Positions 36,949 through 64,000 of a stretch of 64,000 nt of DNA are shown here, piece after piece. The stretch covers positions 5,408,001 through 5,472,000 of the forward strand of contig OY761158.1 in NCBI GenBank assembly GCA_963664405.1. The letters run 5' to 3'. The position numbers and the translations under genes were made by a program. The notes beneath the pieces were generated by a model. The model saw nothing but the letters and a program-made list of their open reading frames with translations. It had not been told where the DNA came from and made no database searches. Origin of the DNA: Thermoanaerobaculia bacterium (GTDB taxonomy: Bacteria; Acidobacteriota; Thermoanaerobaculia; Multivoradales; Multivoraceae). Numbering within the stretch: position 1 is the first letter of the stretch; every line of letters begins with the position of its first letter.

Positions 36949-36952
36949 GGGC

Positions 36953-43610: not shown

Positions 43611-43994
43611 ATGGTTACACACACCGGGGGGTGTCACTGCGGACGAGTTCGCTTCGAGGTGGACGCTCCCGCAGAGATCGATGTCGACGAGTGCAACTGT
43701 TCGATCTGCTCCCGTGTCTCATACCTCCATCTCATCGTTCCGAAGTCTCGATTTCGCCTGCTCCGCGGCGAAGAATCGCTGACTTCTTATCGCTTCAACA
43801 CCGGGGTGGCTCAGCACCTCTTCTGTTCCACCTGCGGCGTCAAGTCGTTCTACGTGCCCAGATCTCATCCGGACGGCTACAGTGTCAATGCGCGATGCCT
43901 CGATCAAAGTAGCATTCAGCGATGCACGGTGCGGCAGTTTGATGGAGTGAATTGGGAGCAGCATGTTGTCGAGCTCGGCCAGCTCCAAGAGTAG
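43611..43994 (+). CDS. GFA family protein
   Basis: GGCHCG.VRFE, CNCSIC and H.FC..CG motifs. Confidence 0.9.
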   Translation: MVTHTGGCHCGRVRFEVDAPAEIDVDECNCSICSRVSYLHLIVPKSRFRLLRGEESLTSYRFNTGVAQHLFCSTCGVKSFYVPRSHPDGYSVNARCLDQSSIQRCTVRQFDGVNWEQHVVELGQLQE

Positions 43995-46728: not shown

Positions 46729-47628
46729 CTACTCCTTCTTCAGATGGCGATCCAGGAAGGCGACGACGGCGCGGCTCATCTCATCGTCGCTGCTCACGTC
46801 GCGATTGACGTCGTCATGGTCCTTGCTCTTCGCCATGAAGCTCTCGACCTCGACGCCCGCGGTGCGCAGGGCGCCGGCGAGCTCGTCGCTCGCCATTCCC
46901 GGCGGATATTGTTGGAACTGGATGCCGGCTGCGACAAGGAGGGTGGGCGGATGGCCCTTGTCCGGCGCGATGTGCGCCATCGCCGAAGCATCGCGCCAGT
47001 GCTCGGGAGTGTCGCCGAACTTCGAGAACGGGCCGGCGAGGATTGCGGGATCCTCGATCGCTGCGATTCGGGCCTCGAGATCGTAGGTGTGGCCGTCGAG
47101 GAGCACAGCCGCCTTCACCACCTCCAGACCGAGGCCGTGAGCCTCCAACCTGCGTTGATCCGTGATCAAGAGGCTACTCACCTGAGCGCCAGACGAGTGT
47201 CCGAGCAATCCGATGCGCTCAGGGTCTCCTCCGTAGTCCGAGATGTTCCGATACACCCAGGCAAAGGCAGCCGCGGTGTCCTCGAGCCAGGCAGGGTGAC
47301 GAACGGCGGGCGCGAGCCGATAGTTGATCGACACCACCACGTAGCCACGACTACAGAAGAAGTGCGGCTTGTCGCCCACCATCTCCTTGTCTCCGGCCCG
47401 ATAAGCGCCGCCGTGGACGTAGACCACCACAGGTGCCCCGTCGGCGCCGGCGGGAGCATAGATATCGAGCGCCTGGAGCTTCGCGTCACCGCCTTCGAGG
47501 TAGACCAGATCCGTCGTCGTCTGGATGACGAGATCGGGCGGGCGCTGCTCCTCCGAACAGGAGGCTATCGCCAACACCACAAGGGGCAAGGCCAAGAACC
47601 GCCATCCGTGAAAGCTCAGTTCGGGCAT
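46729..47628 (-). CDS. HSL-family alpha/beta hydrolase lipoprotein
   Basis: Lipobox-like IASC; HGGAY, NYRL.P and GHSSGA motifs. Confidence 0.85.
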   Translation of the reverse strand: MPELSFHGWRFLALPLVVLAIASCSEEQRPPDLVIQTTTDLVYLEGGDAKLQALDIYAPAGADGAPVVVYVHGGAYRAGDKEMVGDKPHFFCSRGYVVVSINYRLAPAVRHPAWLEDTAAAFAWVYRNISDYGGDPERIGLLGHSSGAQVSSLLITDQRRLEAHGLGLEVVKAAVLLDGHTYDLEARIAAIEDPAILAGPFSKFGDTPEHWRDASAMAHIAPDKGHPPTLLVAAGIQFQQYPPGMASDELAGALRTAGVEVESFMAKSKDHDDVNRDVSSDDEMSRAVVAFLDRHLKKE

Positions 47629-47632
47629 CTCT

Positions 47633-47880
47633 CTACTCCTTCGCCAGGTGGCGCTTGAAAAAGGCGGTGACGGCGCGGCTCATCTCATCGTCGCTGCTCA
47701 CGTCGCGGTTGACGCCGCCGTGGTCTTTGCCGTGCGCCAAGTCCCCCTTGTGCAGGCCCTCAGGCGCGCCAGGCAAACCCACCTTGAGCAGCCCGGTTCG
47801 GAACGGACTTTGACCGGTGATGAAGGCGGCCCGGCCTGCGGTGCAGCTGTTCTGACCGTAGGCGTCGGTAAATCTTCCAA
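47633..47880 (-). pseudogene. Chimeric remnant: arylsulfatase fragment plus duplicated hydrolase C-terminus
   Basis: [33 protein letters not shown] (sulfatase) fused to [25 protein letters not shown] (near-copy of the neighbour's end). Confidence 0.7.
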
Positions 47881-47906
47881 TAGCGCAATAAGAGTGTCCT
47901 CCGTCG

Positions 47907-48030
47907 TGGCACCTTCCGCTAGAAAGTGCGCCAACCCTCGACTCCTTGTTGAGACGAAACCGCGCAACCACCGAAAGTTGTCCGCGGAAGGAAGGTACCA
48001 GATTGTCACCTTCCACCGAATTTCGCGACA
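47907..48030. repeat. 27-bp sites downstream of the recombinase (48004-48030; degenerate 47907-47933)
   Basis: TGTCACCTTCCACCGAATTTCGCGACA and TGGCACCTTCCGCTAGAAAGTGCGCCA. Confidence 0.65.
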
Positions 48031-48061
48031 TCACTACATTCGGAGGCGTCGCTCTTCGTGC

Positions 48062-48589
48062 CTACCATTTGGTCCGGAACTCCTGCAGCACGAACTCGGG
48101 GCTCATGTTCAGGTAGATCTCGGTCGTCGACAGGTGATCGTGGCCGAGCATCATCTGCAAGGCGCGTGTCGAGCCACCCTTGTGAATCCACAGAATCGCA
48201 AAAGTGTGACGCAACACGTGGGGACTGACGGGACGGGAGATCGTCGCCGCGTTGGCGACGCGTCGCACGGTGCGCTGAGTGGTCCGCGCCGAGAAGTCGA
48301 TTGTCTCGTGGAGGATGAAATAGTGCTCGAAAAGAGCCCGCACACGGTCCGAGAGAGGTACAACTCGGAGCTTGGTGCGCTTTCCATAGGGGCCACCCTT
48401 TCCGTACAGCCGGATGCAGCGCTGCTGCCACTGGATCTGGTTCCTGGTCAAGTTGGCCAGCTCGGAGACGCGCATACCCGTCTCGAGAAGAGCCCAGATA
48501 CAGATCTTCTCCTCCATTGTCTCGCAGGCGTTGATGATTCGATCGGCTTCCTCAATCGACAGTGGCTCACGTTTGTGTTGGTATCTCAT
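48062..48589 (-). CDS. Minimal tyrosine recombinase (catalytic domain only, 175 aa)
   Basis: Complete R-K-H-R-H-Y set: ETGMRVSE, YGKGG, HVLRH, LGH and TEIY. No N-terminal core-binding domain. Confidence 0.92.
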   Translation of the reverse strand: MRYQHKREPLSIEEADRIINACETMEEKICIWALLETGMRVSELANLTRNQIQWQQRCIRLYGKGGPYGKRTKLRVVPLSDRVRALFEHYFILHETIDFSARTTQRTVRRVANAATISRPVSPHVLRHTFAILWIHKGGSTRALQMMLGHDHLSTTEIYLNMSPEFVLQEFRTKW

Positions 48590-48666
48590 GGCACAGTCCA
48601 TCAGAGACTGCGCGGGAGGAAATCGCAGCTCCTCCCTGAGAGCCGGCTCTAGAGAGCTTTCTGGGT

Positions 48667-48716
48667 ACTCATTCGGATCGAGCTATGCGTGTCGTAGTGC
48701 GCCACATAAAGCGACA
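48667..48716. repeat. Linker motif plus 27-bp site (48690-48716)
   Basis: ACTCAT-N9-GCTAT-N3-TGTCGTAGTGCGCCACATAAAGCGACA, 7 bp from the kinase stop codon. Confidence 0.85.
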
Positions 48717-48723
48717 TCCTCTC

Positions 48724-51403
48724 TCAGTCGGCGGGAACGAGATGCTTCAGCTCCTCGGCCCAGTTCAAGACGACCTGGATGTGGGCTGGCGCGCCCTCGA
48801 GAGCCTTGATGAAGACGAAATCTCCGTTGGGTAGGACGTCGTACTGGGGGAAGGGGGACGGGTGTGAGTAGTAGCGCGCCTCGAAGAGGAGCTTCGGCCG
48901 CGAGTAGGTGAAGCTCTGGCCACCTGCCGACTCAGCCACGTCGACCTTCATCAACAGGTCACCGTTACGGTAAAAGAGCTCGCGCCCTTGCGTGCTCCAG
49001 ACGGGGTTTCGACCACCCCCGGTCGAGATTCGATACTTCGCCTCCGAGGTTCCGGCCAGCGGTCGCACGTAGACATTCAGCTGACCGTCTTCGTCGCTGA
49101 CGTACGCCACCCACCGCCCGTCGGGGGAGGATCTAGAGCTGGTCTCGTAGACCGGCGTCGCAAGAAAAGGTCGCGGCTCTGTTTCACCGGCAGGCAGCAT
49201 CATGATGTCGTGGAGGTTTACCGGATCCACCAGCTGGTAGAGAAGATCTCCGTTCGGCGTGAAGGAATGCGCCACCTGCACCGGCCCGGGTGCAGTAACG
49301 GCAATTTCGTCGGCGCTGCCATCGGCCAGCTTCGAGAAGAGGCCGATCCCTCCAGGTCGAGTCGACTGGAAGACCAGGCGATCACCTTCGGCGCTCCACA
49401 CCGCGAAGCCCGATCCCTTGAAGGTCAGCTGCCGCCGACTCTCCTGGGCTAGATCGTAGATCCAGACTTCGCGCCGCCGCAGGTCGGTGGCGTTGTTGCC
49501 GCTGAGGACCGTTACCGATACCTGATCTCCTGCTGGTGAGACGCGAGGCGCCAGATAGCTGTCGGGTGGGATCTCGAGCGGCGTCTCTTTGCCACGGCGA
49601 TCCACTCGTACCAGGGTCGACAGCCGTTGAGCGCTGATCGGCGTGGTTGCAAGGAGGTTTCTCGCGACCGCGTATTGCGACACTCCCCGCGCCACCGGTA
49701 CCGGCGTGCCGGTGACGCTCCCGGCTTCGACATCGAAGGGCACGGCCATCAAGTCGTTGTCGCGGCGAAACAGAAGATGTCCGGTCGATACGACCTGGGG
49801 GTCACGGGCGTCATCGAGCAATGTGAGTCTTCTGCCCGAGGCAACGTCGATGGCGATCAGGCTCGGGAGGCGCGAGGCGGCCACCACCTCCGCGAGGACG
49901 GTCTTTCCGCCGGGGAGTAGCTCGGGTGAGCTCGGTTTCCCTCGCCGCCCTGTTTCGCCGCCAGAGTCTGGAGCGTCCGCGTCGTCCGCGGGGACGGGAG
50001 GATGATAGAGCTCCGCAGTGCCGCCGACGGCCGGTACCACCAGCAACTCGTCCGAATCGAGGGTGGCGAAGACGATGCGATCGTCGTCACCCCAGGCACC
50101 GCCTCGGGGGATTGGGACATCGCAGATCGCTACCGGGGCTCCCCCCCCCCTGGGTCGGCAACCTCTTGAGCTCCGTGCCCTGAAAGAAGGCGATCCACTC
50201 GCCGTCCGGTGAGAACAGCGGAAACTGCGCCCCCCGGGTTCCCGCTAGCGGCTGGCTCGAGGGATCCGCGATTCTGCGGAGATGGAGCTGGTCTTGAGCT
50301 ACGAAGACGAGCTGGAGTCCGTCGGGCGATAGTGCGAGCTCGCGAAGCCCTTCAAGCCCTCTACCGTTGGCGCCGGTGATACTCAGCCGGGCCGGTCGTA
50401 GCGTCACGGGCTTTTCGTTTCGCGGCGCGATCAGGGTCGTCAGCAGCATGCCGGCTGCCAGTCCAACAGCAAGCGCGAGGGCAACACGTCCCCGGACCTT
50501 CGTGGGGGTGACCGCAAACTCGGAACCTGCGTTCGGGTCGGTAGCTGCGTCCCTCGCCTCCTCGATCTCGAAGCGAGCGTCACCGATGTCGCGCAATCTC
50601 TCGCTGGGCTCTCTCTTTAGGCAACGACGGAGCAGACGCTGGATCGCTCTCGGCGTCGGCGCAAGCCTTCCCCAGTCCAACTCTGCCCGAAGAACCGCTG
50701 CCAGTGTGTCGGCCGCATCGTCGCCCTCGAAGGCGCGGCGGCCTGCAAGCGCCTCGTAGAGGCACGCGCCGAAGGCCCATACGTCGGCCCGCTTGTCGAC
50801 CTCCCTGCCCTTCGCCTGTTCGGGCGACATGTACGCCGCGGTGCCAAGGATCTGGCCCTGGCGCGTTGCCGCGTAGGTGAGCGTGGGCGACTCCGAGGAG
50901 TCGCTCTCCGGGCCTGTCGCCGGAGCCATTGCCTTGGCCAGACCGAAGTCAAGAATCTTGACGTTCCCGTCGTCGGTGACCTTGATGTTCGCGGGTTTGA
51001 GATCCCGGTGGATCACGCCCTTTTCGTGGGCTGCCTCTAGACCTTCCGCGATCTGCAAGAAAACGGGCAAGGCTTCATCGACGGGGACAGCACCTCTCTT
51101 GATGCGCTCGGCGAGTGTCTCGCCTTCGACCAGTTCCATGACCAGGAAGTTAGTGTCCCCTTCCTTCTCGAAGCCGTAGAGCGTGGCGATGTTGTTGTGA
51201 TTCAGTGAGGCGAGGACGCGAGCCTCGCGCTCGAAGCGCGCCAGCCGCTCAGGATCTGTGGAAACCTCATCGAGAAGGAGCTTGATCGCTACCTCGCGCC
51301 CGAGCTTGGTGTCCTTGGCGCGATAGACCTCTCCCATTCCTCCCACTCCGAGGCTTGAGACCACTTCATAGTGGCCAAGGCGAGTGCCAGCTTCGAGCGC
51401 CAT
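48724..51403 (-). pseudogene. Ser/Thr kinase-TM-TolB/PD40 propeller K1, frameshifted at a G10 tract (50141-50150)
   Basis: Hanks motifs (Gx[24 protein letters not shown]); ORFs 50087-51403 and 48724-50046 join if the tract is G9 or G6. Confidence 0.85.
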
Positions 51404-51463: not shown

Positions 51464-51540
51464 TGTCGCGATGCACCCGGAACTGCGACAGCAGGAGCCT
51501 ATTCAGATCGAGCTATGGCTGTCGCAGTCCGCCACCAAAG
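51464..51540. repeat. 27-bp site (51464-51490), 29-bp linker and left part of an IS-interrupted site (51520-51540)
   Basis: TGTCGCGATGCACCCGGAACTGCGACA..GCCTAT-N9-GCTAT-N3-TGTCGCAGTCCGCCACCAAAG. Confidence 0.85.
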
Positions 51541-51671
51541 TCATCATAGAAATGCGCTCGGGTGCGCCCGAGGTCAAGAAGTAGGGAGTTGTGAAGAACG
51601 GTCCTCCGTCGAAAGGGTCAAACTCGAGATGAGTAATTACCCTGGGCTTAGCCCCAAGAAGGAGGACCGAA

Positions 51672-52710
51672 ATGGAACGATATCTCGGACTCGACATGCA
51701 TCGGGACAGCTGCACGGCCGTCGTGCTGAGTGCCGGTGGGAAGAAGACCGGCGAGCAGGTGATGGCGACCGAAACCGCCGCGTTGGTGCAGTACATAAAG
51801 AGTCTCTCGGGAGAGCTTCACGTCTGTGTGGAGGAGGGCGAGTGGAGCGAGTGGGTAGTGGAGATCCTCAATCCATGGGTCTCGCGGGTGGTTTCGGCGT
51901 CGGCTCCGGGTCGCAAGGGTCCTCGCAGCGATGCGATGGACGCTCGCGAGCTCGCCGAGCGTCTGAGGACTCGCCAGACGGGTCCACCGGTCTACAAGGC
52001 GTCTCGGGAATGGGCGCGGCTGCGCGAGGCAGTGCCGCCTGGAGGGCAAGCTGCTCCAGGACGCGGTACGAGCCAAGCAGCGGCTCAAGAGTCTGTATCG
52101 ACGTCGTGGTGTGGCGTGCTTGGGCGAGGAGGTCTACTCCCCGCAGCTGCGCGAGCAGTGGCACGCGAAGCTGCCCGCAAGCGTGCGGCCATCCGCCGAG
52201 CTCCTGGGTCAGGAGCTCGATCACCTCACAGAGCTGCACCAGACCGCCGAGCGGCAGATGTGTGCAGCCGCTGGCAAGTTTCCGATGTGGCGCAAGCTCC
52301 AGACGGCTCCGGGGATCGGCCGCAAACGATCGGCACAACTGCTAGCGATCGTGGTGACCCCTCATCGCTTCCGCACCAAACGACTCTTCTGGTCCTACTG
52401 CGGACTCGGTGTGGTCACGCGCTCGACCTCGGACTGGGTCCGCCAGCCGAACGGTCAGATGGTGCGGGCTCCAGTGATCCAGGCCCGGGGGCTGAACAAA
52501 GCCTGCAACCGTCAGCTCAAGGGGCTCTTTGTGGGCGCCGCGAAGACGGCTCTCCGCTGCCGGCGACCCAATCCCCTGCGCGACGCCCACGAACGGATGG
52601 TCGAGGCCGGGACCAAACCGAATCTGGCCCAGCTCACCATCGCGCGAAAGATCGCTGCAGTGGTGCTGGCCATGTGGAAGAGCGAAAGCGAGTATCGGAT
52701 CATGAGCTGA
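51672..52710 (+). pseudogene. IS110 transposase, +1 frameshift near 52035
   Basis: YLGLDMH, VEEG, SDAMDA; second frame has PGIG, F.TKR.FWSYCGLG..TRST and IARKIAA..LAMWK. Confidence 0.85.
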
Positions 52711-53090
52711 GTCTCACCTTCGACCGCTTCCCTGCCGGGCTCTGGCGCCGAGCGCCGGACCGAGACGGGGATCGGTGCCGGGTCGGACTCAGAGATCCAA
52801 AGGTCGAGGGAGAGTCTCCACTGTCGTCTTGTGCCCCATCATCGATGGGAGTAACTGACATAAGTCTAGGCCCCCTCCCAGGACCAAAAGAAGAGATGGC
52901 CCACGAGGCCCTGATGGAAGGCTGGTCCCAGCATACGAGGACCCACACACTCACTTCTCATCTCACGAGCTCACCCGCAACAGGAACCGATCCCCGAACC
53001 GGAAGACGCCTCGCGGATCCACTCGGTAGAGGAATAGCCCGCGCTCGATCCCAAGACCTCGAGCGCTCAGGGAAACTCCGTCTTGACATC
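52711..53090 (+). ncRNA. Predicted bridge/seek RNA of the IS1111-type element (bounds approximate)
   Basis: CCAAAG (52797-802) matches left target plus core; CTGTCGTCTT (52821-30) is the reverse complement of core plus right target AAGACGACAG; ATGGAAG (52914-20) matches the donor right end. Confidence 0.7.
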
Positions 53091-53104
53091 GATTTCTATG
53101 GAAG

Positions 53105-53176
53105 ACGACAGCTCGCCGATTTCGGGGCCTATCGCCTTTCAGCTATTCGTGTCGTGGTCCGCCAGATTCTGCGACA
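53105..53176. repeat. Right part of the interrupted site, 39-bp linker and 27-bp site (53150-53176)
   Basis: ACGACA..GCCTAT-N9-GCTAT-N3-TGTCGTGGTCCGCCAGATTCTGCGACA, 6 bp from the K2 stop codon. Confidence 0.85.
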
Positions 53177-53182
53177 CGGTGA

Positions 53183-55888
53183 TCAGTCGGTCGAGGTGAG
53201 TCGTTTCAACTCGTCGAACCAATCGAGAACGACGTTGATGTAAGAAGGCGTCGCTTCCGGAGGCTGGAGCATCAGGAAACGATTGCCGTCGGACGTGACA
53301 TCGTAGTGGGAGACCCCCTTGCCGAGCCGAGGGGCCGGCCATCCGCTGAGGAGAACCTGCGCTGGCTCGAACGTGAAGACAGAGCCGTTGGTCTCGACAG
53401 GAATAACCATGAGGAACTCGCCCTGGCGAAAGAACAGTTCCCGTCCGTCGCGGGACCACACCGGGTCCCGGCCGCCGTTTGCGGAGACCGGAGTGGAACC
53501 TACAGGCTCAGGATACGACGTGACGTGGACCTCCTTTTCGCCCGTCACCTCCGACACGTATGCGATCCATCGCCCGTTCGGCGAGAAGGTCGGCGAGTCC
53601 TCGTTGTGCGGACGCGAGAGAAAATCGCTCGGCCCCCCCTCTTCGAGGATGCCAATGTCCGATCCGGCCGGCGTGGTCTCGAAAAAGGCGAGGGCGTTGC
53701 CATCTAGGCCCCAAGAGGTCGGAAACTGACGGCCTGCCCGCGCCAACAACTGCTCCGGCTCCCTCCCCCCATCGGCCGGCACGAAGTGCAGGTCAAAGTG
53801 CGCGGCTCCCCTGACTGCGGAGAATGTGAGTCCGTTACGCTGCTGGTCCCAGACGGGCGTGAGATTGTATCCGTCGGTGGTCAACAACGTCCGGGTGCCA
53901 CTTTCGACATCGATGACCCAGATGTCGGGCGTAATCGTTACGGCGATCTGATTGCCATCCGCCGATAGACGAGGGGTCTTGTAAGGGGCAAGGCCGTCGA
54001 CAACCGGCGTCACCTGCTGGTTCTGTCGATCGACCCAGACGAGCGTCGTGTCCGTCGCGCCGGAATCTTCCGGCGGGTAGGCGAGCGTTCCGGTGTCGGA
54101 CACCGCGAAATGCGCGCCACCCAGCCCGGCGAGATACGGAACCCTCTCGGTGGTGGGAATGGGAGAGCCACTGGCACTCAGCCGGTCGAGATCAAACGCA
54201 ACCACCATCAAGGCCCCATCCTGGGCATATACAAGATGTCCTGTTTGGACGTAGCGGGCACCGTGGGCATTGGGGAGCACCCAGTCCCATTCATTTGACG
54301 CAAGGGACAAGATCGCGGCTCGCGGCCCGTCGTTGTAGTTGATGGTAAACAGGACGTGCTGACCGCCGGGGAGAATCTGGGGATCGAAGTGCCGAAATTC
54401 CCCCACCGCGGCGTCTGGAAGCGTCAGTCGTTCCGGTACTCCGGCACCTGCTGACACTTTGTAGAGGCCAAACGTGAAATGCGAAAAGATGATGGTGTCA
54501 TCACGCCCCCAGCTCGCGCTCGGGAAGAGCCCGATCGTGTCGCAAATCTTCACGGGGGACCCACCCAAAACCGATACTTTCTGCAGCGTCCTGTTGGCAA
54601 AGAAACCGATCCATTCGCCGTTCGGTGAAAAGAATGGAGCTTGCGCGCCTTCGGTACCCGCGATCGGCTGAGCTTCGAACTCGTCGATCGGGCGGAGAAA
54701 CAGCTGCGTCGATCCACCCCCAGGCTGCGCTGCCGTGTAGACCAGGAGTTGACCATTGGGCGAGATTGCGATGGCACTAACGGCGGCCTCCTCGCCCAAC
54801 GACAGCTCCTGGTCGGGCGGAAGCGCGACAACGAGTCGAGCCGGAGACCGCACCTCGGCCTGCCGCAGGGCCCACCAGGCGCCGGCTCCCGCTCCCACTG
54901 CGAACAGCGCGGTCAGCGCCCATGGGACCAGTCGCTGCCAACGGTGAGCCTGAAGCGGCCGTTCGGCCTGGCGTGCATCAACGGCCGGAGCCGCGAAGGC
55001 ATCACCGATCTCGATCCGCGCGTCGGCCTGAAGCTCATCGCCGACCGCCTGAAGCTCGATCCCGACATCCAGGGCCGACTGCCAGCGTCGCTCGGGGTCT
55101 TTGGCCAGGCAGCGGCTCACAACCCAGTCGAGGCGAGGTGGAGCGATCTCTTGGACCGCCCTCAGCGGTCGAGGCTCCGAGGCCATGATGGCGGTGGTCA
55201 GGGAAGCTTGGTTGTCGCCCTGGAAAGGGCGCTCGCCGGTGACCATCTCGTAGAGCACGCAGCCCAGTGCCCAGATGTCGGTGCGGGCGTCGGTGTCCTT
55301 GCTCTCCAACTGCTCCGGTGCCATGTAGAGCTGCGTACCGAGGATCGAGTCCTGACCGGTGATCGGCTGCATCCTCGTCGGTGACTCTGTGTTGGCCGCC
55401 AATGGCTCCGGCTCGATGCTCTTCGCCAGTCCGAAGTCCAGCACCTTGACGCCGGTCTTCGTCAGCATCACGTTGCCGGGCTTCAGATCCCGATGCACCA
55501 CTCCGGCCTTGTGGGCGGCATCGATCGCTGCACCGATCTGGCTCCCGATCTCTAGCGCCTGAGCGATGGGAAGAGCCCCCTTCTTCAACCCCTTCTCAAG
55601 CGTCTCGCCTTCCACCACCTCCATGACCAGGAAGCGAGTGCTGCCGTCTGTGTCGAAGCTGTAAAGCGTGGCGATGTTCGGGTGATTGAGGCCGGCCAGG
55701 ACCTTGGCCTCGCGCTCGAACCGCGCCATCCTCTCAGGATCCCCGGATACCTCCTCCAATAGCAGCTTGACCGCCACCTCACGACCGAGCTTCGTGTCTT
55801 TCGCTCGGTACACCTCTCCCATGCCTCCCGCACCGAGGGAGGAGACGATCTCGTAGTGGCCCAGGATTGTGCCTGGTTTTAGCTGCAT
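53183..55888 (-). CDS. Ser/Thr kinase-TM-TolB/PD40 propeller K2 (intact, 901 aa)
   Basis: Hanks motifs, TM helix, repeated FSPNG.WI blades and C-terminal YDV..DG.RFLM..VVLDWFDELKRL. Confidence 0.92.
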   Translation of the reverse strand: MQLKPGTILGHYEIVSSLGAGGMGEVYRAKDTKLGREVAVKLLLEEVSGDPERMARFEREAKVLAGLNHPNIATLYSFDTDGSTRFLVMEVVEGETLEKGLKKGALPIAQALEIGSQIGAAIDAAHKAGVVHRDLKPGNVMLTKTGVKVLDFGLAKSIEPEPLAANTESPTRMQPITGQDSILGTQLYMAPEQLESKDTDARTDIWALGCVLYEMVTGERPFQGDNQASLTTAIMASEPRPLRAVQEIAPPRLDWVVSRCLAKDPERRWQSALDVGIELQAVGDELQADARIEIGDAFAAPAVDARQAERPLQAHRWQRLVPWALTALFAVGAGAGAWWALRQAEVRSPARLVVALPPDQELSLGEEAAVSAIAISPNGQLLVYTAAQPGGGSTQLFLRPIDEFEAQPIAGTEGAQAPFFSPNGEWIGFFANRTLQKVSVLGGSPVKICDTIGLFPSASWGRDDTIIFSHFTFGLYKVSAGAGVPERLTLPDAAVGEFRHFDPQILPGGQHVLFTINYNDGPRAAILSLASNEWDWVLPNAHGARYVQTGHLVYAQDGALMVVAFDLDRLSASGSPIPTTERVPYLAGLGGAHFAVSDTGTLAYPPEDSGATDTTLVWVDRQNQQVTPVVDGLAPYKTPRLSADGNQIAVTITPDIWVIDVESGTRTLLTTDGYNLTPVWDQQRNGLTFSAVRGAAHFDLHFVPADGGREPEQLLARAGRQFPTSWGLDGNALAFFETTPAGSDIGILEEGGPSDFLSRPHNEDSPTFSPNGRWIAYVSEVTGEKEVHVTSYPEPVGSTPVSANGGRDPVWSRDGRELFFRQGEFLMVIPVETNGSVFTFEPAQVLLSGWPAPRLGKGVSHYDVTSDGNRFLMLQPPEATPSYINVVLDWFDELKRLTSTD

Positions 55889-55949: not shown

Positions 55950-56042
55950 TGGCGTCTTCCACCATGAAAGACGACAGCCCCTCTGCTCAGAGGCTCATCT
56001 GCTTTCAGCTATACGTGTCGTCCTTCGCCACATTTCACGACA
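55950..56042. repeat. Paired 27-bp sites (55950-55976, 56016-56042) with 39-bp linker
   Basis: TGGCGTCTTCCACCATGAAAGACGACA / TGTCGTCCTTCGCCACATTTCACGACA. Confidence 0.88.
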
Positions 56043-56050: not shown

Positions 56051-58728
56051 TCAGTCGGTGGGAACCAGACGCTGCAGCTCCTCGAACCAGTTCTGGACCA
56101 GGACGACGTGACTGCTCGAGCCCCCCTCGGTCGTCTCCGCCGGTTTGACCATCAGGAACCTCTGACCGTCAGGGTGGATGTCGTACATGCGGCCGATTCT
56201 GACGGCATAGCTCCCCGTGAAGAGCTCCTGTGGGCTCCCAGCCTCGAACGCGGGCTCGGTTGTGACCGGCACTGCCATCAGCCGATCGCCGGCACGATAG
56301 AAGATCTCGCTCCCGTCGGGCGACCATAGCGGTTCGCTGCCACCGCCCGCTGAGATCGGGAAGCGACCGCCGTCGACCTCAGGGAATGGCCTCACATAGA
56401 TCTCGTCCTCGCCTGATTCGTCCGACTGGTAGGCCAGGAAACGACCGTCGGGTGAGATCTCTCCACTCCGCTCATTGATATCCGTGGCGAGAAGCAGCTG
56501 TGGCGCTCCCTCGCCTTCCAGCGACAGCACCCCCAGATCGAATCCCCCCCCTGCGCCGACGCGGTAGACGAGAAGCTTGCCATCGGGAGAGATCGACGAG
56601 GGAAATAGACTGTCTGGGCTGTCGGTGAGAGGCCTTACAGCGCCCGTACCGTCAGCCGCCCTCTGGTAGACGTCGAAGGTCCCGCCACGAACCGAGCTGT
56701 ACACCACTTCGCGGCTGTCAGGAGTCCAGATCGAATACATGTCTGGTCCCGGATCGCGGGTCAACCGGTCCAGGGTCTCCCGACCGAGATCCCAGATCCA
56801 CACATCCTGTTCTTCATCCTGGGAAGAGACCGCTACCCGCTGTCCATCCGGAGAGATGCGGGGAAGCAGGTAGGGCCGAATCGGGGCCAAGAGGGCCTCC
56901 TCCCTCCCGTCCCGTCCCACCCAGACCAGGGCCGTCTGCACCCCTCCCCCTGCGCCACCCGTGACGTACACCAAGGATCCGTCCTGCGAGAAGTCGAAGT
57001 TCACAGCACCTGTGGGCTTCGTGCCGACGCCTTCCAAGACGGGCACCGGATTTCCCCGGACCTCAAGACTTCCTGCATCGAAGGCCACCGCACGTAACGT
57101 ACCGCTCACTCCATAGACCAGGTGCCCAGTGGGCACGTACCGGGCGCCGGCCCCTCCAGAGACCAGGACCTTCCGCTCCCCGGTGGCGAGAGATAGGGCC
57201 ACGATCTGCGTCTGCTCGACGTTCGCGCTCGTAAATACCGTGAAAAGGACGGCCTCGCCGCCGGGTAGTACATCGGGGAAGCGATAGCTACTCTCTCCTC
57301 TCTCGGGATCTGGCGCTACCAGCAGCTCCGGCTCGCCGCCTCCCCCCGACATCCGATAGAGGCCCTCGGAGATGGAGCTGAAGATGATGGTGTCGTCCGC
57401 GCCCCAGCTCACACCGGGGAGAATGCCGCCGGGTATGTCGGCCAAGGTCACGATTGGTCCCCCGAGAATGGAGACCTTCTTGAGAGTTCCGCCGGATGCG
57501 AAGCCGACCCAGGCCCCGTCAGGTGAGAGGAAAGGAGTCCTCGCGCCCTCCGTGCCTTCCAGGTGGGACCCGACGAGGCTGCCCACGTGGCGAACATAGA
57601 GAGAGCCTCCGCTCTGGTAGACCACCGCACGACCGTCGGTTGTCACCGCCAGATCGCGCCCGTTTGGGAGAACGCTCACCGGCGCGCTGGGAGCGGCGCT
57701 CAGCACCGAGCGAACCACGGGGCGCTCGGTCGGCAGTGGAGCAGGCTTCAGCATCCAGACTGCGCTGGCGATCACTGCGACGGCAGCGAGGGCGGCGAGA
57801 ATGAGGGGGACGGGACTGCGCTTCTCCGCCATAACCGCCCCGGGGGTCTCCTCGTCCTCCGGAGCCGCCATGACTTCTTCGATCTCGATGCGGGCATCAC
57901 CGATATCGTGCAGCCTCTGCCTTGGGTCCTTGCTGAGACACCGCCGCAACAGTTCTCTGAGCTTTCTGGGCGTGTCGCCAGGGAGCCCTTCCCAGCCCGG
58001 GTCAGACTTGAGCACCGACGCCAAGGTGGTGGAAGCGTCCTCGCCCTCGAAGACTCGCTTGCCGCTCAGCGCCTCGAACAGACAGACCCCGAAGGCCCAC
58101 ACATCGGCGCGCTTATCGACGGTCTTTCCTCGCGCCTGCTCGGGAGCCATGTAGGCGGCTGTGCCGAGAATCTGACCCCGTTGAGTTGCTGCAAGAGTGA
58201 GGGTCGGAGATTCGGACAAGCGCCCTCTCCGGTGGCACTAGCTTCCACAGCCATCGCCTTGGCCAACCCGAAATCGAGGAGCTTCACGGCACCCTCGTCC
58301 GACACTTTGATGTTCGCGGGCTTCAGATCGCGATGGATGACGCCCTTCTCGTGGGCTGCCTCCAGCCCCTCAGCGATCTGCAAGAAGACGGGCAATGCTT
58401 CGTCGACTGGCATGGCTCCTCTCTTGATGCGATCCGCTAGAGTCTCGCCCTCCACCAGTTCCATGACCAGGAAGCTGGTGTCGCCTTCCCGCTCGAAGGC
58501 GTGAAGGCTGGCGATGTTCTTGTGGTTGAGCGAGGCCAGAACCCGCGCCTCCCGCTCGAGGCGAGCTAGGCGCTCCGGGTCAGAGGAGACCTCGTCAAGC
58601 AGGAGTTTGACCGCCACCTCGCGCCCGAGCTTCGTGTCGCGAGCTCGGTAGACCTCTCCCATGCCCCCGGCACCGAGGGAGGAGACCACTTCGTAGTGGC
58701 CGAGGCGAGTGCCAGCTTCTAGCGCCAT
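56051..58728 (-). pseudogene. Ser/Thr kinase-TM-TolB/PD40 propeller K3, single frameshift near 58221
   Basis: ORFs 58066-58728 and 56051-58219 join at ..ATGEG-LSESPTLT with one added base. Confidence 0.85.
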
Positions 58729-58787
58729 GACTTGGTGACATCTTACCCGTCGCCCGGGGGATCAGCGGCTCAGAGCTCGATCTGTGC

Positions 58788-58880
58788 TGTCGCACCTCAC
58801 CGAATTTCACGACAGCCCCTTCTCTCAGAGGGTTATCTGCTTTCGGCTATACCTGTCGCAGAGCGCCAGGGATTGCGACA
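58788..58880. repeat. Paired 27-bp sites (58788-58814, 58854-58880) with 39-bp linker
   Basis: TGTCGCACCTCACCGAATTTCACGACA / TGTCGCAGAGCGCCAGGGATTGCGACA. Confidence 0.9.
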
Positions 58881-58923
58881 GACAGTGGCAGCTCTGTCGG
58901 CCCCTACTCTGGAGGGAGAGATC

Positions 58924-59385
58924 CTATTTGCGCTCATGAACAAGATCGATTTGGAACTCGCGGCGAATCTCTGCGAGCGGCCGGCTCAAGAAGGTGTCGA
59001 AGTTGGACCAAGGCCACTTGGCCGGCATGCGATGACCTCGCCACGCAGCCTTGACGAGGATCGGTACTGACCTGGCGAAGGTGACCAAAGCTGTCCGCCA
59101 GCCAACCTTTGCCATGATGTCTTTGTGCTCCTCGACCCTGAAGAAGCCAAGAAACTGACGGATGCTCACAGAGGTACCGAAGAGCGTCCATGTGTCCGTC
59201 AAGGCCTCGCCAGCCAGGCTAGTGCTACAGCCGAACAAGACATGGGCCGTGTCGTGGCACCGAAAGAACTCAGCGCCGAGTCCTCCGGGATCTCGGGCTG
59301 AGGCGAGCCCTGGGTTTGCAGCCCAATACTCCATCAGCCCCTCGGCCAGAGTCTGCCGTGATTCCTGCTCCTGATACCTTGGCAA
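58924..59385 (-). CDS. Coq4-like hypothetical protein
   Basis: HDxxH(x)11E motif (HDTAHVLFGCSTSLAGE) and PL.EIR.EF.I; SD AGGAG before the TTG start. Confidence 0.6.
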   Translation of the reverse strand: MPRYQEQESRQTLAEGLMEYWAANPGLASARDPGGLGAEFFRCHDTAHVLFGCSTSLAGEALTDTWTLFGTSVSIRQFLGFFRVEEHKDIMAKVGWRTALVTFARSVPILVKAAWRGHRMPAKWPWSNFDTFLSRPLAEIRREFQIDLVHERK

Positions 59386-59481
59386 GGCCGAACTCTCCTT
59401 CGCGGAGCTCTCACGCCATCAACCAGCGCGTAGTCTAGCGTCCGACCACAGCAATAGGACGCTCTTTCGGCACGCCCTCAC

Positions 59482-59508
59482 TGTCGTAGTGCGCCACATT
59501 TCGCGACA
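59482..59508. repeat. 27-bp site
   Basis: TGTCGTAGTGCGCCACATTTCGCGACA, 4 bp from a kinase C-terminal stub. Confidence 0.85.
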
Positions 59509-59512
59509 CCAT

Positions 59513-59570
59513 TCAGTCGGTGGGCCGCGTGGCGTTTCAACTCGTCGAAGCAGTTGAGGACGACATAGCT
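59513..59570 (-). pseudogene. C-terminal stub of a fifth kinase-propeller gene
   Basis: YVVLNCFDELKR...PTD* matches the tails of K1-K3. Confidence 0.7.
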
Positions 59571-59586
59571 GCAATGCTTAAGCCGC

Positions 59587-60054
59587 TTAGAGATCCAGCA
59601 ATGGTCCTACGATCTCCATGTTGTACTTCTCGGCCAATTCTTCGGCTTTGGCAACGTAAGCTTCTGTGTCCGTGACATCCAGATCAACCGCCTCGTCAAA
59701 GAACTGCTCGAATCCTGGTGGAGAAATGATGGCGAGTAATTTGGCAGGTTCCTGCCCGGCGCGACACCAGGCGTGAACCGTTCCCCTGGGGATGAGGACG
59801 AAAGAACCAGCTTTCGCTATAGAAGTGGTTTCTCCCAACAGTACTTTGACCTCTCCCTCCAAGACGTAGAAGGCTTCCTCCTCGGTTTTGTGTATATGCT
59901 GTGGCGGTCCGTCGCCGGTTAGCTCGATCTCCAAAAGTGAGTACGCACCACCGGTGTCTGCACCAACCACCTTAAGCGTTATCTCGTGGCCTGGCACTGG
60001 AACTGTCTTGCCCTCTCCTGGGCCGAGTACAACATTCCCATCGTCAATAGACAT
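59587..60054 (-). CDS. Cupin-domain protein
   Basis: PPQHIH..EEEAFYVLEG, IPRGTVH and PPGFEQFF motifs. Confidence 0.88.
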   Translation of the reverse strand: MSIDDGNVVLGPGEGKTVPVPGHEITLKVVGADTGGAYSLLEIELTGDGPPQHIHKTEEEAFYVLEGEVKVLLGETTSIAKAGSFVLIPRGTVHAWCRAGQEPAKLLAIISPPGFEQFFDEAVDLDVTDTEAYVAKAEELAEKYNMEIVGPLLDL

Positions 60055-60224
60055 ACATTGTTCTCCTTAGTTCTCCCATGGAACACAAAAGATTGGGACT
60101 GACGGCTTTGGTGAATCAGGCCTGGGCGACCATCGCAACCATCCACTTTAGATGAGTGAACAGGAGTATACGTCTGCGCCGGGTCTGGTCCCGCTACCCT
60201 TCTGGTGGGGGACCCGATTCGCGC

Positions 60225-60316
60225 CGTCGTAATGCGCCGAATTTCACGACACACCTCTGCTCGAAGGCTTATCTGCTTCCGGCTATGCGTGTCGCGGTCC
60301 GCCACATTTCACGACA
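60225..60316. repeat. Paired 27-bp sites (60225-60251, 60290-60316) with 38-bp linker
   Basis: CGTCGTAATGCGCCGAATTTCACGACA / TGTCGCGGTCCGCCACATTTCACGACA. Confidence 0.9.
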
Positions 60317-60326
60317 CGCCTTCGCC

Positions 60327-63000
60327 TCACGAGCCCCCCTCGGAGAACATCTCGAGCACCTTGGCCCGCCAGTTCTGGACGAAGACTAGACGCTCCTCCT
60401 CGGCCTCTGCCGCCTGGATCATGAGGAAGCGACCGTCGGGGTGGATGGCGTAGTTCTGGAAGCTCAAGGGTGTGCGCAGGTAATCATCCACGAAGAGTGG
60501 CTCGGGACGCCGGGGGGACGAAGCGCTCGCCGGAGATCTCGACCGGGAGCGTCATCATGTGGGTCGGGCTGCGGTAGAGGATCTCGCTGCCTTCGGGGGA
60601 GAAATCGGGCTCCCCGCCGCCGTCGAAGGTGAGCTGGCGCGGCTCGCCGGGACCGGGGAAGGGCCGGATCCAGACGTTCTCCTGTCCCTGAATCACCACC
60701 GAGTAGGCGATCCAACGTCCGGCGGGGTGGAAGCGGGCGGCGGGGACCACGTTCCCCTCGAGGAGGGTCTCGGACTCTCCGCTCTCCCGGTCGAAGATCC
60801 AGAGTCCGGAGACATCGATGTTCGTGTAGAGCATGTAGCGCCCGTCCGGGGAGAAATCCAGCGGTACCTGCGGGTGCTCCGACGGTACGAGCCGCTCCGC
60901 CGGGGCACTGCGATCGGCAGGCTGGATGTAGAGCTGAAAGCGTCCCTCGAGGCGATCCGACATGAAGACGATCTCCTGGCCGTCGGGGGGCACCCACATC
61001 AAGCCAGCGTTGCGATTCCCCTCCTGGGTCGGGCGGGTCCAGGAGCCGGTCCCGAGGTTGAGCATCCACTGCTCTAAGTCCCCCCTGGCGTTGCGGGCGC
61101 CCACCGAGATCCGGCGCCAGTCCTGGGAGTGTCGCGGCGACGCGAAAGGCTTGCGCTCCGGCGCCACCTCCTCGATGTCCCGGCCGTCCCGACTCACCCA
61201 AACCAGCCGGGACACGCTCCGACTCCCGAGAACGTAGAGCAGGTCGCCCGAGTCGGCGAGCGCGAAGCGGCCCCTATCGACGCCAACGCCGAGGAGCGGC
61301 GCCACCCCGTTCTCGACCTGACGCGCCGGGCCGAGGAGGGCGGCGGTCTCGGGATCGATCGGCGCCGCCCACAGTCCGCCCTCGCGATAGAAAACCAAAA
61401 CCCCCGGATCGAGATAGAACGGCTGCGCCCCAGGGAGGAGAACCCGTTCCTTGCCAGTCTCGAGGTCCACCGCCTGAACATCGCTCCAGAAGCCCTCCTG
61501 ACGCTCGGATCTCAAGTGGGCCAGGACGACCCTCTCACCAGGCAGAAGCGCGGTGCCGATGCCATGCCCCACCTGCTCGGAAACACCCCCGTCCGCCGGA
61601 ATCCGCCATAGCTCGCGAGACGTGGGGCTTCCTATCTCAGGAGTGTAGTAGAGGAAGCCATCGCGCCCCCAGACACCGGTCCTGCGGATCCCTTCCACCA
61701 GAGCGCTGGCGCCTCCACCCCCCACGGGAAGCGTCTTCAGACTGCCCCCGGCCACGAAAGCAAGCTGCTGGCCGTCGGGCGAGAAGATCGGGCGGAGGGC
61801 ACCGTCGCTGCCGGAGATGCGATCGGCAACCAGGGAGTCGAGAGAGCGCCGGTAGAGGCTGGTCTCGGCTCCCTCGCGACGGCCGAAGACCACCATCCGA
61901 CCGTCCGGGGAGAGCACGAAGGGCTGATCCGGAGTTGCCTCGAGGTCGAGAGCCGTGACCGTCCAGGTGTCGGCCGAAGTGGCGTCGCTGGCCACGTTCT
62001 CCTCCCCACCACGGTCCAGGACGTAGCCGAGGGCGAGACCGACCACCAGGGCGAGGAGGGCGAGTGCTCCGGCGAGGACCGCCGACACCGGTCGCCTGGT
62101 AGGCGCCGCCTCGCCACCGGCTGGCGCGTCGATGTCCGGCTGCTCGAGCACTCCTCGGATCTCGATCCGGACGTCGGCGATGTCGTGAAGGCGCTCCCGC
62201 GGGTCCCTCGTCAGACACCGTCGGAGCAGTGTCCTGATCGGCCTCGGCGTCGCCGGGGGGAGCTTGCCCCAGTCGATCTCCGCTCTGAGCACCGCTGCCA
62301 GCGTGTCGGCGGCATCGTCGCCGCGGAACGCCCTCGATCCCGTCAGCGTCTCGTAGAGACACACGCCGAAGGCCCAGACGTCGGCCCTTCTATCGACCTC
62401 TTTCCCCTTGGCTTGCTCAGGCGACATGTAGGCCGCCGTGCCGAGGATCTGGCCTCGGAGCGTGGCCGCCTGGGTCAGCGTGGGCGATTCCGAAGGGTCG
62501 CTCTCCGGCCCCGTCGCCGGAGCCATTGCCTTGGCCAGACCGAAGTCAAGAATCTTGACGTTGCCGTCGTCGGTGACCTTGATGTTCGCGGGTTTGAGAT
62601 CCCGGTGGATCACTCCCTTCTCATGGGCTGCCTCGAGGCCCTCGGCGATTTGGAGAAACAGAGGGATCGCCTCATCGACGGGAATCGGGCCGTGAGCGAT
62701 CCGATCGGCCAGAGTCTCACCCTCCACCAGTTCCATGACCAGGAAGCCCGTGTCACCTTCCCGCTCGAAGGCGTGGAGGCTGGCGATGTTCTTGTGGTTG
62801 AGCGAGGCGAGAACTCGCGCCTCCCGCTCGAAGCGAGCTAGACGCTCCGGGTCAGAGGAGACCTCGTCGAGCAGGAGTTTGACCGCTACCTCGCGACCGA
62901 GCTTCGTATCCTTCGCTCGATACACTTCTCCCATGCCTCCTGCACCGAGGGAGGAGAGCACTTCGTAGTGGCCGAGGCGAGTGCCAGCTTCTAGAGCCAT
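60327..63000 (-). pseudogene. Ser/Thr kinase-TM-TolB/PD40 propeller K4, frameshift near the 3' end in a 6-nt homopolymer (60512-60517)
   Basis: 838-aa ORF. Removing one base gives the family tail RPEPLF...NYAIHPDGRFLMI...FVQNW ending at 60327. Confidence 0.82.
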
Positions 63001-63060
63001 TGACTTGGCGACATCATACCCGTCGCCCGGGGGATCAGCGGCTCAGAGCTCGATCTGTGC

Positions 63061-63144
63061 TGTCGCACCTCACCCAAAAGTGCGACAGCGGGAGGCTTAT
63101 TCGCTTCGAGCTATTCTTGTCGTAGTCCCAAGGGGTCCCTGTGG
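63061..63144. repeat. 27-bp site (63061-63087), 30-bp linker and half-degenerate site (63118-63144)
   Basis: TGTCGCACCTCACCCAAAAGTGCGACA..GCTTAT-N9-GCTAT-N3-TGTCGTAGTCC. Confidence 0.82.
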
Positions 63145-63214: not shown

Positions 63215-64000
63215 TCACTCGAATACTTCGAGCTCCCTTCCGCCGGAGCGCAGCACGACGTCGACGTACTTGGTGTCCGCTGTCGTACCGCCGAAAACAC
63301 CCACCGAGATGAACCACACACCAACGACGCGCTCTGGTGGATCGCCGCCTACCGCCATTTCATAGTCGTCGAGGATCTTGCGGGTGTGGCTCTGCCACAC
63401 GCCGACGTCCTCACGGCCGCTCTGGAGCACGATGTGGGTCTCGCGCCTGTCCCACCAAGGCAGCGGGCAGCGGAAGCTCGTCACGGCCTCGAGGTAGGGG
63501 CTTCGCATCCACGTGATGTCCTGCCCGTTGTCGAACTCGAGGGCGATGCTCGAATAGTCGTGGTGGCTGGCCTCTGTCTCCGGGCCCAGGGAGTGCAGGT
63601 CGTCGTAGCGCCAGGCGAAGCTGATCTCGCTCGATCGATCGAGCGGCAGATCCACCGCCTTCTTGATGATCCCGCCCGACGAGGCGGCGTTGCCCCAGAC
63701 ACCGTGCCGCTCGCCGTCGTCCCAGGCCTCGAAGACATCGGCTGTGCGGAGTAGGTAACACACGGAACGGAAACCCGCAGGAAGCTCGCGAGCGGCGTCG
63801 AGGTCGGCCTTGGCGCGTGCCAGGACTTCGTGTGCGACGAGGCCTCCTAGGGCGTCGCCGGGCGCCGATCTCCACGCCACAGTCAGCAGGTCGTGACCGG
63901 GCGCTTGGCGCGGAGCCGCGCTGAGCGAGGCCGGCGGCGTGCCGTCACAGTGCTCCCAGCGTACGTCCCTGGGCAGTGAGATCACTTCGATTTCACCCGT
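63215..64000 (-). CDS. DUF3047-like protein (5'-partial)
   Basis: Frame open to the window end; W.YDDL.S...E...HHDY.SIA.EFDNGQD.TW..S, W....R.I..DY..A.GG.PP motifs. Confidence 0.65.
   Translation of the reverse strand, partial: TGEIEVISLPRDVRWEHCDGTPPASLSAAPRQAPGHDLLTVAWRSAPGDALGGLVAHEVLARAKADLDAARELPAGFRSVCYLLRTADVFEAWDDGERHGVWGNAASSGGIIKKAVDLPLDRSSEISFAWRYDDLHSLGPETEASHHDYSSIALEFDNGQDITWMRSPYLEAVTSFRCPLPWWDRRETHIVLQSGREDVGVWQSHTRKILDDYEMAVGGDPPERVVGVWFISVGVFGGTTADTKYVDVVLRSGGRELEVFE

Follow-up and report, generated by a model that had tools for sequence, protein, structure and literature searches.

A catalytic-domain-only tyrosine recombinase and 27-bp sites that probably bound exchangeable gene cassettes in an Acidobacteriota genome

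Among the described systems that come closest to the locus reported here, integrons use one exchange plus replication, the integrases IntDOT of CTnDOT and Int of Tn916 tolerate unlike overlap sequences, and the Xer-dependent dif/pdif modules of Acinetobacter plasmids have sites that alternate in orientation and rely on the XerC and XerD of the host. The subject of this study is an array of genes separated by 27-bp repeats in a 64,000-nt stretch of DNA (the window) from a Thermoanaerobaculia bacterium, positions 5,408,001 to 5,472,000 of contig OY761158.1 in assembly GCA_963664405.1; the host genome is that of an uncultured Acidobacteriota, assembled as one contig of 6.78 Mb. Coordinates are those of the window, and larger numbers such as 614345 are genome coordinates on the contig. 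We consider it probable that the repeats serve a site-specific tyrosine recombinase, most likely a 179-aa enzyme encoded at one end of the array, as double-stranded core sites, and that they bound single-gene cassettes which have been excised and inserted repeatedly within and between about eight arrays, the main exchange apparently falling between site positions 12 and 15. The accessible portions of the literature, those of PMC8138268 included, gave no account of these sites, of the arrays or of a catalytic-domain-only recombinase group.

The sites share the 27-bp consensus TGTCGY-N4-C(A/G)CC-N7-RCGACA. The pattern TGTCGY-N(14-16)-RCGACA has 105 matches in the genome versus 3 for a reversed control pattern, and in the window the exact pattern TGTCG-N(12-18)-CGACA occurs 9 times versus 0.78 expected, a count of at least 9 being reached in 0 of 100 shuffles. 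By the core C(A/G)CC (CRCC) at positions 11-14, 86 of 100 27-mers can be oriented (strict sites); within these 86, C11, C13 and C14 are invariant and position 12 is G in 54 (G12 sites) and A in 32 (A12 sites). A scan with a position weight matrix (PWM) gives 107 sites at a score of at least 20 genome-wide and 13 scored sites in the window, all on one strand, adding the degenerate ones at 48004, 51520, 55950 and 60225. The sites cluster in about 8 arrays, and their orientation is uniform within every array, so that they form direct repeats. Many spacings are close to 2770 bp and correspond to kinase cassettes, and 19 of 71 inter-site segments measure 57-67 nt. G12 sites lie directly 3' of open reading frames (ORFs). 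A12 sites precede kinase start codons by about 59 nt or stand upstream of other cassettes, with a conserved linker and then a G12 site after them. Of the 52 cassettes that exceed 300 nt, 42 have a longest ORF that is co-oriented, and the stop of that ORF is usually 14-56 nt away from the core. A weight-matrix-based scan found 29 linker units genome-wide, of 39 nt (20 units), 38 nt (3), 40 nt (2), 30 nt (3) and 29 nt (1). In the window, the minus-strand gene array with its plus-strand 27-nt repeats runs from about 48.0 kb to the window end and then on to genome position 5475273, where a decayed head module follows.

An earlier note on this stretch had drawn attention to the leaders of two kinase cassettes, K3 and K4, as almost identical from the ATG through site position 14 and abruptly different beyond it. 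Alignment bears this out: 58729-58801 and 63001-63074 differ by two substitutions and one one-base indel, past position 14 they agree at only 2 of 8 variable positions, and the linkers are unlike in length and sequence. The site at 58788-58814 reads TGTCGCACCTCACC followed by GAATTTCACGACA, and that at 63061-63087 reads TGTCGCACCTCACC followed by CAAAAGTGCGACA. All four sites that the note had named were found (these two, 51464-51490 and 60225-60251), with linkers of the lengths it had given, namely 39 nt after 58788, 38 after 60225, 29 after 51464 and 30 after 63061. Its suggestion that the right half of a site tracks with the linker extends to the whole genome for GAATTTCACGACA, which precedes one family of 38-39-nt linkers at 9 of 9 sites and is combined with at least 6 different left halves. 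At 60225-60251 this right half follows CGTCGTAATGCGCC, whose left arm is degenerate, and the left side of that site is unrelated to the left side of 58788. The loose pattern that the note had paired with 29-30-bp linkers, C..AA.TGCGACAGC.GGAG, was right about the lengths and merged two right-half families: CAAAAGTGCGACA precedes a 30-nt linker in 3 of 3 listed genome sites, as also at window 63061, and CGGAACTGCGACA occurs with three different linkers.

Linkage between half-sites and flanks was assessed by comparing all pairs of sites by their flanks and setting position-wise match rates against background. In the 198 pairs that share the left flank only, the match rate is 0.87 and 0.83 at positions 6 and 7, 0.46-0.50 at 8-10 (background 0.28-0.34) and at background at 15-22; in the 22 pairs that share the right flank only, it is 0.64-0.95 at positions 15-22 and at background at 7-10. 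Mantel-type permutations on the 32 A12 sites gave r = 0.337 for left half with left flank and r = 0.344 for right half with right flank, each reached in 0 of 2000 permutations; the cross terms (r = 0.075 and -0.003) and the correlation of half with half (r = -0.006) were not significant. For the 54 G12 sites the corresponding values were r = 0.145 on the left (4/2000) and r = 0.054 on the right (79/2000), again with cross terms that were not significant. Pairs with near-identical flanks (at least 95% over 40 nt on one side, at most 45% on the other) place the break more closely. Among 45 left-identical pairs, 20 have their first mismatch at position 15, 10 at 16-20, 13 at 8 and 2 at 7, so that homology runs through position 14 and is lost from 15 on in 30 of 45; reading leftwards in 13 right-identical pairs, the first mismatch falls at 10 in 6, at 8 in 1, at 15-16 in 3 and at 22 in 2, with none in 1. 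Left flanks and positions 1-14 are identical, and what follows is unrelated, in the pairs 24310/4989797, 600055/4991476 and 767727/4990631; the mirror case is seen in 28161/614402/759557 and in four GAATTTC sites. At 90% identity, 55 left and 72 right classes occur in 83 combinations, and one left unit is joined to up to 15 unrelated right units. Sites 614345 and 5471061 have both flanks in common and differ at positions 8-10 only.

Positions 11, 13 and 14 being invariant, only position 12 is informative within the core. Among the 107 scored sites, all 36 with a linker as left flank have G12, and all 25 with a kinase leader there have A12. A rule based on the right side, in which a linker or head module goes with A12 and an ORF 3' end with G12, is broken by three sites: at 5002351, A12 precedes an ORF end that elsewhere has G12 before it; window 60225 has G12 before the unit of GAATTTCACGACA plus linker that is elsewhere preceded by A12; and the site split by an IS110-family element (51520-51540 and 53105-53110) has G12 and then a linker. 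At these three informative sites position 12 travels with the left side, which would place the junction between positions 12 and 15. The proposal of the earlier note, that strands exchange at or just after the CRCC core and leave hybrid sites, is thus largely supported, the linkage of the flanks appearing to flip inside the core.

Whole cassettes recur in different arrays. Cassettes c4989797_4990631 and c768557_767727 (834 and 830 nt) are 99.0% identical from core to core, and c28161_31903 and c759557_755749 (3742 nt) are 99.8% identical, likewise core to core and in another array; the neighbours of recurrent cassettes are unrelated on both sides. In a genome of another Acidobacteriota family (G206), a kinase cassette 93.5% identical to c4996744_4999518 loses homology exactly at position 14 of its A12 site, where TGTCGCACCTCACC is followed by GTGAAAGACG... 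in one and by ATATTTCACGACA in the other. Chimeric joins at repeats in a genome assembled from a long-read metagenome could in principle imitate such mosaics, given that the genome is a single contig with many near-identical repeats and that several of its kinase genes are frameshifted. Misjoins would, however, fall in the long kinase repeats and not in a 4-bp core, the same site architecture is present in 80 metagenome loci, and zero-mismatch contigs from four public runs in two studies, some of which may derive from the source sample, span the window junctions 58801/58802, 58867/58868, 59495/59496 and 60238/60239, all of which makes an assembly artefact extremely improbable. Eight further joints in the public runs are of low confidence, one side measuring no more than 30 nt and the depth not exceeding 28; they include 58801 to 60290, whose left end is site position 14 and whose intervening letters are unread.

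The genome of the other family shares further sequence with this one: at one locus there, an insertion sequence (IS) at locus positions 1-1963 is 100% identical to more than 20 copies here, and a 2.7-kb stretch (7050-9745 of the locus) is 98% identical. This sharing points to recent exchange, close kinship or a binning problem.

Alternatively, the repeats might be regulatory or structural palindromes (operators, terminators or REP/BIME-like elements) whose variable parts drift faster than leaders and linkers, the apparent break being relaxed constraint beside neighbours made unrelated by ordinary duplication. Leader and linker are clearly conserved elements, metagenome linkers at least 90% alike carry many different left halves, and in other phyla a second site overlaps a TATAAT-like box (by eye) at the start of the recombinase gene, which suggests that binding there is also regulatory. 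Nevertheless, the sites show no hairpin covariation, the complementarity of positions 6-10 with 18-22 being equal to that of shuffles; an Rfam search of the sites at E of at most 1 returned one chance miRNA match and no family; the sites carry no terminator consensus; and a sigma-70 scan found no promoter in the linker or at the sites (1 match in 16 kb versus 2.1 expected). In addition, the sites are clustered in arrays rather than dispersed, and drift explains neither why a 40/40-identical flank meets unrelated genes at an identical base in many copies nor how whole cassettes moved between arrays. We therefore regard palindromes of this kind as a very improbable explanation. A folded-site or RNA reading was likewise rejected, as there is neither an Rfam family nor stem covariation; since no hairpin constraint is seen, the sites are most likely read as duplex DNA.

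The linkers have a feature of their own. The motif YTAT-N8-9-GCTAT is common to all 29, 3 nt before the G12 site (for example, in window 58815-58853), and their lengths fall into discrete classes of 29-30 and 38-40 nt. A bending-protein site and a promoter are both possibilities for this motif; a promoter match spotted by eye in the linker, GCGACA-N16-GATAAC, was set aside as unsupported by the sigma-70 scan.

The likely agent of the proposed exchange is the tyrosine recombinase encoded at 48062-48601 on the minus strand. Pfam PF00589 (Phage_integrase, 3.4e-29) covers profile positions 5-169 of 172, and the 179-aa protein has no second Pfam domain and no N-terminal core-binding domain. It aligns to C-terminal parts only, namely residues 133-309 of 317 in XerA, 130-285 of 290 in XerD and likewise the C-terminal half of XerC, and the catalytic domains of these three are its nearest relatives by sequence. 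R44, K68, H128, R131, H154 and Y163, which we take to be the catalytic R-K-H-R-H/W-Y residues, are invariant in 20 of 20 aligned homologues. The protein falls below every curated NCBIfam cut-off. No protein in the genome exceeds the TIGR02249 cut-off for integron integrases, the best match scoring 122 bits versus 265 and skipping the IntI-specific insert; the small recombinase itself scores 68 bits, over model positions 238-298 only. Its gene is the sole full copy in the genome, with fragments near two other arrays, and is bounded by the sites at 48004 and 48690 as a 686-nt cassette, core to core. The family has 2691 matches, and nearly all of the 120 homologues listed are 174-176 aa long, in a search that was not aimed at longer forms. 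Members with 55-60% identity occur across Acidobacteriota, Aerophobetes, candidate-phyla bacteria, Planctomycetota, Rhodospirillales, Atribacterota, Chlorobiota, Elusimicrobia and two archaeal bins, and members with 52-56% identity on plasmids of Cardinium, Megaira and Piscirickettsia. Of 42 family loci from other phyla, 23 have a TGTCG-type 27-mer no more than about 1.1 kb upstream of the gene, for which chance is estimated at about 0.03 per locus. In about ten family loci two sites lie 93-94 nt apart; the second touches the ATG, and in other-phyla loci it holds a TATAAT-like box (by eye).

The genome contains a second candidate enzyme. Five copies of an IS91-family element that encodes a 286-aa tyrosine recombinase and a Y2 transposase are present at 34950-37386, 41380-43816, 597007-599443, 615271-617707 and 887326-889762 of the contig, and the right end of the element adjoins a linker just before CTTAT/CCTAT at 37386, 599443 and 1012199 (the last belonging to a further, truncated copy), a junction also found in the G206 genome. 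One may argue that the exchange is real and is carried out by this 286-aa enzyme or by the host XerC/D: the five copies lie inside or beside arrays, inserted in the linker just before CTTAT, and the small recombinase is single-copy and sits at an array tail. However, the window's array contains no such element, the ends of the element differ from the 27-bp site, and the IS enzyme shows nothing like the conserved pairing of the small recombinase family with TGTCG...CGACA sites across unrelated phyla. In addition, all sites are direct repeats, unlike those of Xer dif modules. Another agent is unlikely on these grounds, and the 179-aa recombinase remains our candidate.

A separate observation concerns the array heads. 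Each carries a special 27-mer 93 nt from the last A12 site, at 41336, 617787, 747662 and 6523212, with variants at 873849, 3944777, 4411856 and 5004409. The two-site arrangement of the family loci recurs here as a module of an A12 site, 66 nt and the special site, which closes the arrays of this genome at the end that lies upstream of the first cassette. An invertible switch at the array head was rejected, as the special site is oriented, by eye, like the canonical site in other phyla. The counterpart of the special site in other phyla lies across the start of the recombinase gene and contains a TATAAT-like box, which suggests that the head module is an operator and promoter platform that has lost its gene here.

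A possible course of the reaction can be sketched as follows. We infer strand exchange whose main point would lie at the right edge of the invariant C(A/G)CC. The first strand would be exchanged beside CRCC after a cut at 14/15 (the slash marks the boundary between two positions), the identity of CRCC in all sites supplying the paired bases for the strand swap. The partner strand would be cut 7 bp leftward, at 7/8, giving an overlap region of positions 8-14 within which unlike bases at 8-10 would be tolerated. Replication or repair of the heteroduplex might then leave junctions mostly at 14/15, sometimes at 7/8, and an occasional swapped patch at 8-10. A cassette would run from the last 13 bases of one site, which adjoin the 3' end of the gene, to the first 14 bases of the next, at the 5' end of the gene, which makes every site in an array a hybrid. 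The 57-67-nt linkers may act as mini-cassettes, an example being the 66 nt from core to core at 58802-58867.

Public metagenome contigs also contain the composite of linker and G12 site, in 90 stretches from many data sets and often with the 3' end of a gene of the same kinase family after it; the cassette system is thus common in the environment and not a peculiarity of one genome. These came from a scan of metagenome contigs for the linker end plus a G12 site, in which 90 stretches were found, 80 loci were returned and 68 unique sites had full flanks; three probable false matches (L075, L079 and L134) were dropped, leaving 65 sites. A clean break after the core is present only in some metagenome sets, such as L090/L095/L104. 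The linker is probably conserved by function in these contigs, so that 90% identity there does not indicate recency. No genome among 40 relatives and 400 other Acidobacteriota exceeds 3 strict sites, a count that the collapse of arrays in short-read bins may have lowered.

Several results weigh against exchange at the core by the 179-aa enzyme. No recombination product, circle or cleavage has been observed, and the Logan contigs of the public runs are fragmented and broken at the sites. The only full copy of the recombinase lies at the tail of one array rather than at a head. An overlap at 8-14, as proposed, would sit off-centre, the arms of the site being symmetric about position 14, and positions 8-10 are not linked to the right flank. 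Of the near-identical left pairs, 15 of 45 break at 7-8 rather than at the core. At looser thresholds no more than 33 of 100 left-homologous pairs and 7 of 21 right-homologous ones are assigned to the core in a change-point fit: the left pairs break at 12-15 (33), from 15/16 to 19/20 (16), at 6/7 to 7/8 (24), in the flank from -8 to -1 (24) or beyond 22 (3), and the right pairs between 10 and 12 (7) or elsewhere (14), which leaves the core the largest class in a scattered distribution. A four-gamete test gave a cycle rank of 0 at three thresholds, the joins being one-to-many only. The mapping of breakpoints goes no finer than conserved blocks and so favours the core by construction, and the pairs have ancestry in common; we ourselves count about 19 separate joinings there, as against about 4 at positions 6-8. 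Among the 65 metagenome sites, linkage is not significant (left half with left flank, r = 0.089, 223/2000; right half with right flank, r = 0.002), and 33 of 46 left-identical metagenome pairs differ at positions 6-10 already, versus 13 of 46 after the core. The earlier note had proposed an alignment of sites and flanks from many genomes, with breaks concentrated at the core as its expectation. The core is indeed the largest class of break in this genome; the second class at 6-8, the scatter of the looser pairs and the metagenome sites are caveats to it.

Some of these results would also fit an explanation without a dedicated recombinase, in which homologous recombination or gene conversion among the sites makes the mosaics, the conserved blocks TGTCGY, CRCC and RCGACA act as microhomology, and the core is one of three places where breaks become visible. 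Breaks do occur at the left arm or positions 6-8, in the 15 of 45 genome pairs and 33 of 46 metagenome pairs given above; a few lie at 21-22 or in the right arm (2/13 in the genome, 1/1 in metagenomes), and inside the invariant blocks breakpoints are unresolvable. Nevertheless, blocks of 4-6 bp are far too short for RecA-type exchange, and the 2.7-kb kinase genes, 77-92% identical, give far more homology, yet duplicated cassettes stop at cores. Moreover, positions 15-22 are never linked to the left flank nor 7-10 to the right, and the sites co-occur with one recombinase family across phyla. We thus consider homologous recombination decidedly unlikely, and site-specific exchange near the core remains the reading that we prefer.

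The cassettes of the window comprise four Ser/Thr kinase genes with a PD40 propeller, a cupin gene, a 153-aa ORF, a gene for a DUF3047 protein and, at the far left, the recombinase gene; an IS110-family element is inserted among them. The genes are on the minus strand and the sites on the plus strand. In the window the array begins on the left with the degenerate CACC-type site TGTCACCTTCCACCGAATTTCGCGACA (48004-48030; PWM score 24.4), 32 nt past the recombinase stop. A CGCC-type (G12) site found by the motif and PWM scans, with the linker motif before it, lies at 48690-48716, 3' of kinase cassette K2 (48724-51403), a Pkinase and PD40 propeller gene by ORF and Pfam analysis that is split into ORFs 50087-51403 and 48724-50046. 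The CACC-type (A12) site at 51464-51490, 60 nt upstream of the K2 ATG, reads TGTCGCGATGCACC followed by CGGAACTGCGACA and is succeeded by its 29-nt linker (51491-51519). The next G12 site (51520-53110) is split between positions 21 and 22 by the IS110-family element (51541-53104), which encodes a DEDD transposase with a weak Pfam match; rejoined, this site would precede a 39-nt linker (53111-53149) and would be a G12 site with a linker on its right. The G12 site at 53150-53176 lies 3' of the intact 901-aa kinase gene (53183-55888). A composite at 55950-56042 follows, in which a 39-nt linker separates a degenerate A12 site (55950-55976) from a G12 site (56016-56042), and beyond the composite lies kinase cassette K3 (56051-58728), frameshifted into ORFs 58066-58728 and 56051-58219. 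Upstream of K3 is the composite 58788-58880, whose A12 site and 39-nt linker (58815-58853) are succeeded by a G12 site (58854-58880). The 153-aa ORF, without a Pfam match, is at 58924-59385, and the G12 site at 59482-59508 is 3' of the cupin cassette (59587-60054). In the composite at 60225-60316, a degenerate site (60225-60251) that combines a G12 core with an A12-type right half is joined through a 38-nt linker to a G12 site (60290-60316). Kinase cassette K4 (60327-63000) has an open frame at 60484-63000 (838 aa), which ends about 50 codons short of the kinase family's usual end. The last composite (63061-63144) consists of the A12 site at 63061-63087, a 30-nt linker (63088-63117) and, from 63118, a G12 site (TGTCGTAGTCCCAA...) that is decayed as judged by eye; the DUF3047 ORF (63215-64000) leaves the window.

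Three of the four kinase cassettes in the window are interrupted (48724-51403, 56051-58728 and 60327-63000): K2 and K3 are broken, K4 has an early stop, and the 901-aa copy is intact. Genome-wide, an ORF of at least 880 aa is kept in about 16 of about 20 cassettes of 2.75-2.87 kb. The interruptions could be decay or long-read indel errors. At the border of the array, the ORF at 47633-48034 has a sulfatase-like N-terminus fused to a duplicate of the ~30 C-terminal residues of the adjoining esterase (46729-47628), and this chimeric ORF is a rearrangement scar.

If the proposal holds, integrons are not the sole way in which bacteria file genes as exchangeable cassettes. The large kinase-propeller gene family of this lineage would be explained, and a widespread, conserved and unnamed recombinase family would be given a function. 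An enzyme about half the size of IntI acting on a plain 27-bp duplex site would also be an attractive minimal recombination tool, for which the sequence predicts the exchange point (12-15), the bases that must match (CRCC) and the heterology that may be tolerated (8-10). More broadly, and with a conviction that stops a little short of even, we suggest a second gene-cassette capture system, independent of integrons, with a catalytic-domain-only recombinase of about 175 aa, 27-bp duplex sites and a 7-bp overlap (8-14) of which only CRCC must match. The family and its two-site platform would extend over many phyla, some archaea and endosymbiont plasmids, and this genome, with more than 20 Ser/Thr kinase cassettes, would be a hyper-expanded case.

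How does this system compare with those already described? Like FimB/FimE, the enzyme is a tyrosine recombinase of fewer than 200 aa, essentially a catalytic domain only, with sites beside its own gene. It differs in scoring 26-27 bits versus cut-offs of 221-222, and the upstream sites in other phyla are, by eye, direct and not inverted, so that they form no invertible switch. REP/BIME elements with their RAYT enzymes also have palindromic-ended short repeats in pairs, linkers of discrete length classes and positions 3' of genes; here, in contrast, the repeats form about 8 clustered arrays, lack stem covariation and bound whole duplicated genes, and the enzyme is a tyrosine recombinase and not an HUH transposase. 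The pdif modules share core sites of 27-28 bp with inverted arms that bound gene modules recurring in different contexts, whereas the sites of every array here are direct repeats, without alternation, and a dedicated small enzyme is associated with them. With IntDOT and Tn916 Int the system would share a 7-bp overlap in which a match is needed only beside the first cleavage, and a heteroduplex that gives alternative junctions and swapped patches. Those enzymes are large three-domain integrases of conjugative transposons with arm sites, whereas here a minimal enzyme is paired with cassette arrays and the overlap is proposed from sequence alone.

The closest likeness is to integrons. As in these, co-oriented and mostly single-ORF cassettes stand in arrays, each ending in a recombination site; a fixed crossover within the site would yield hybrid sites; identical cassettes occur in different arrays; there are arrays without a recombinase of their own, like CALINs; and IS110/IS1111-type elements insert into the sites, the IS-split G12 site being the case seen here. 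On the integron side, the insertion recalls IS1111-type elements that target attC sites. The differences lie in the enzyme and in the site. In place of an IntI-type integrase there is a 179-aa catalytic domain only, and in place of attC, which is 57-141 nt long, has R''/R' boxes and acts folded, there is a 27-bp site with neither RYYYAAC/GTTRRRY nor folding covariation. The proposed exchange point is central, leaving 13 and 14 site bases at the cassette ends, and the recombinase is itself a cassette at the array tail. Lacking both IntI and attC, the system is not an integron, though it is integron-like in its working.

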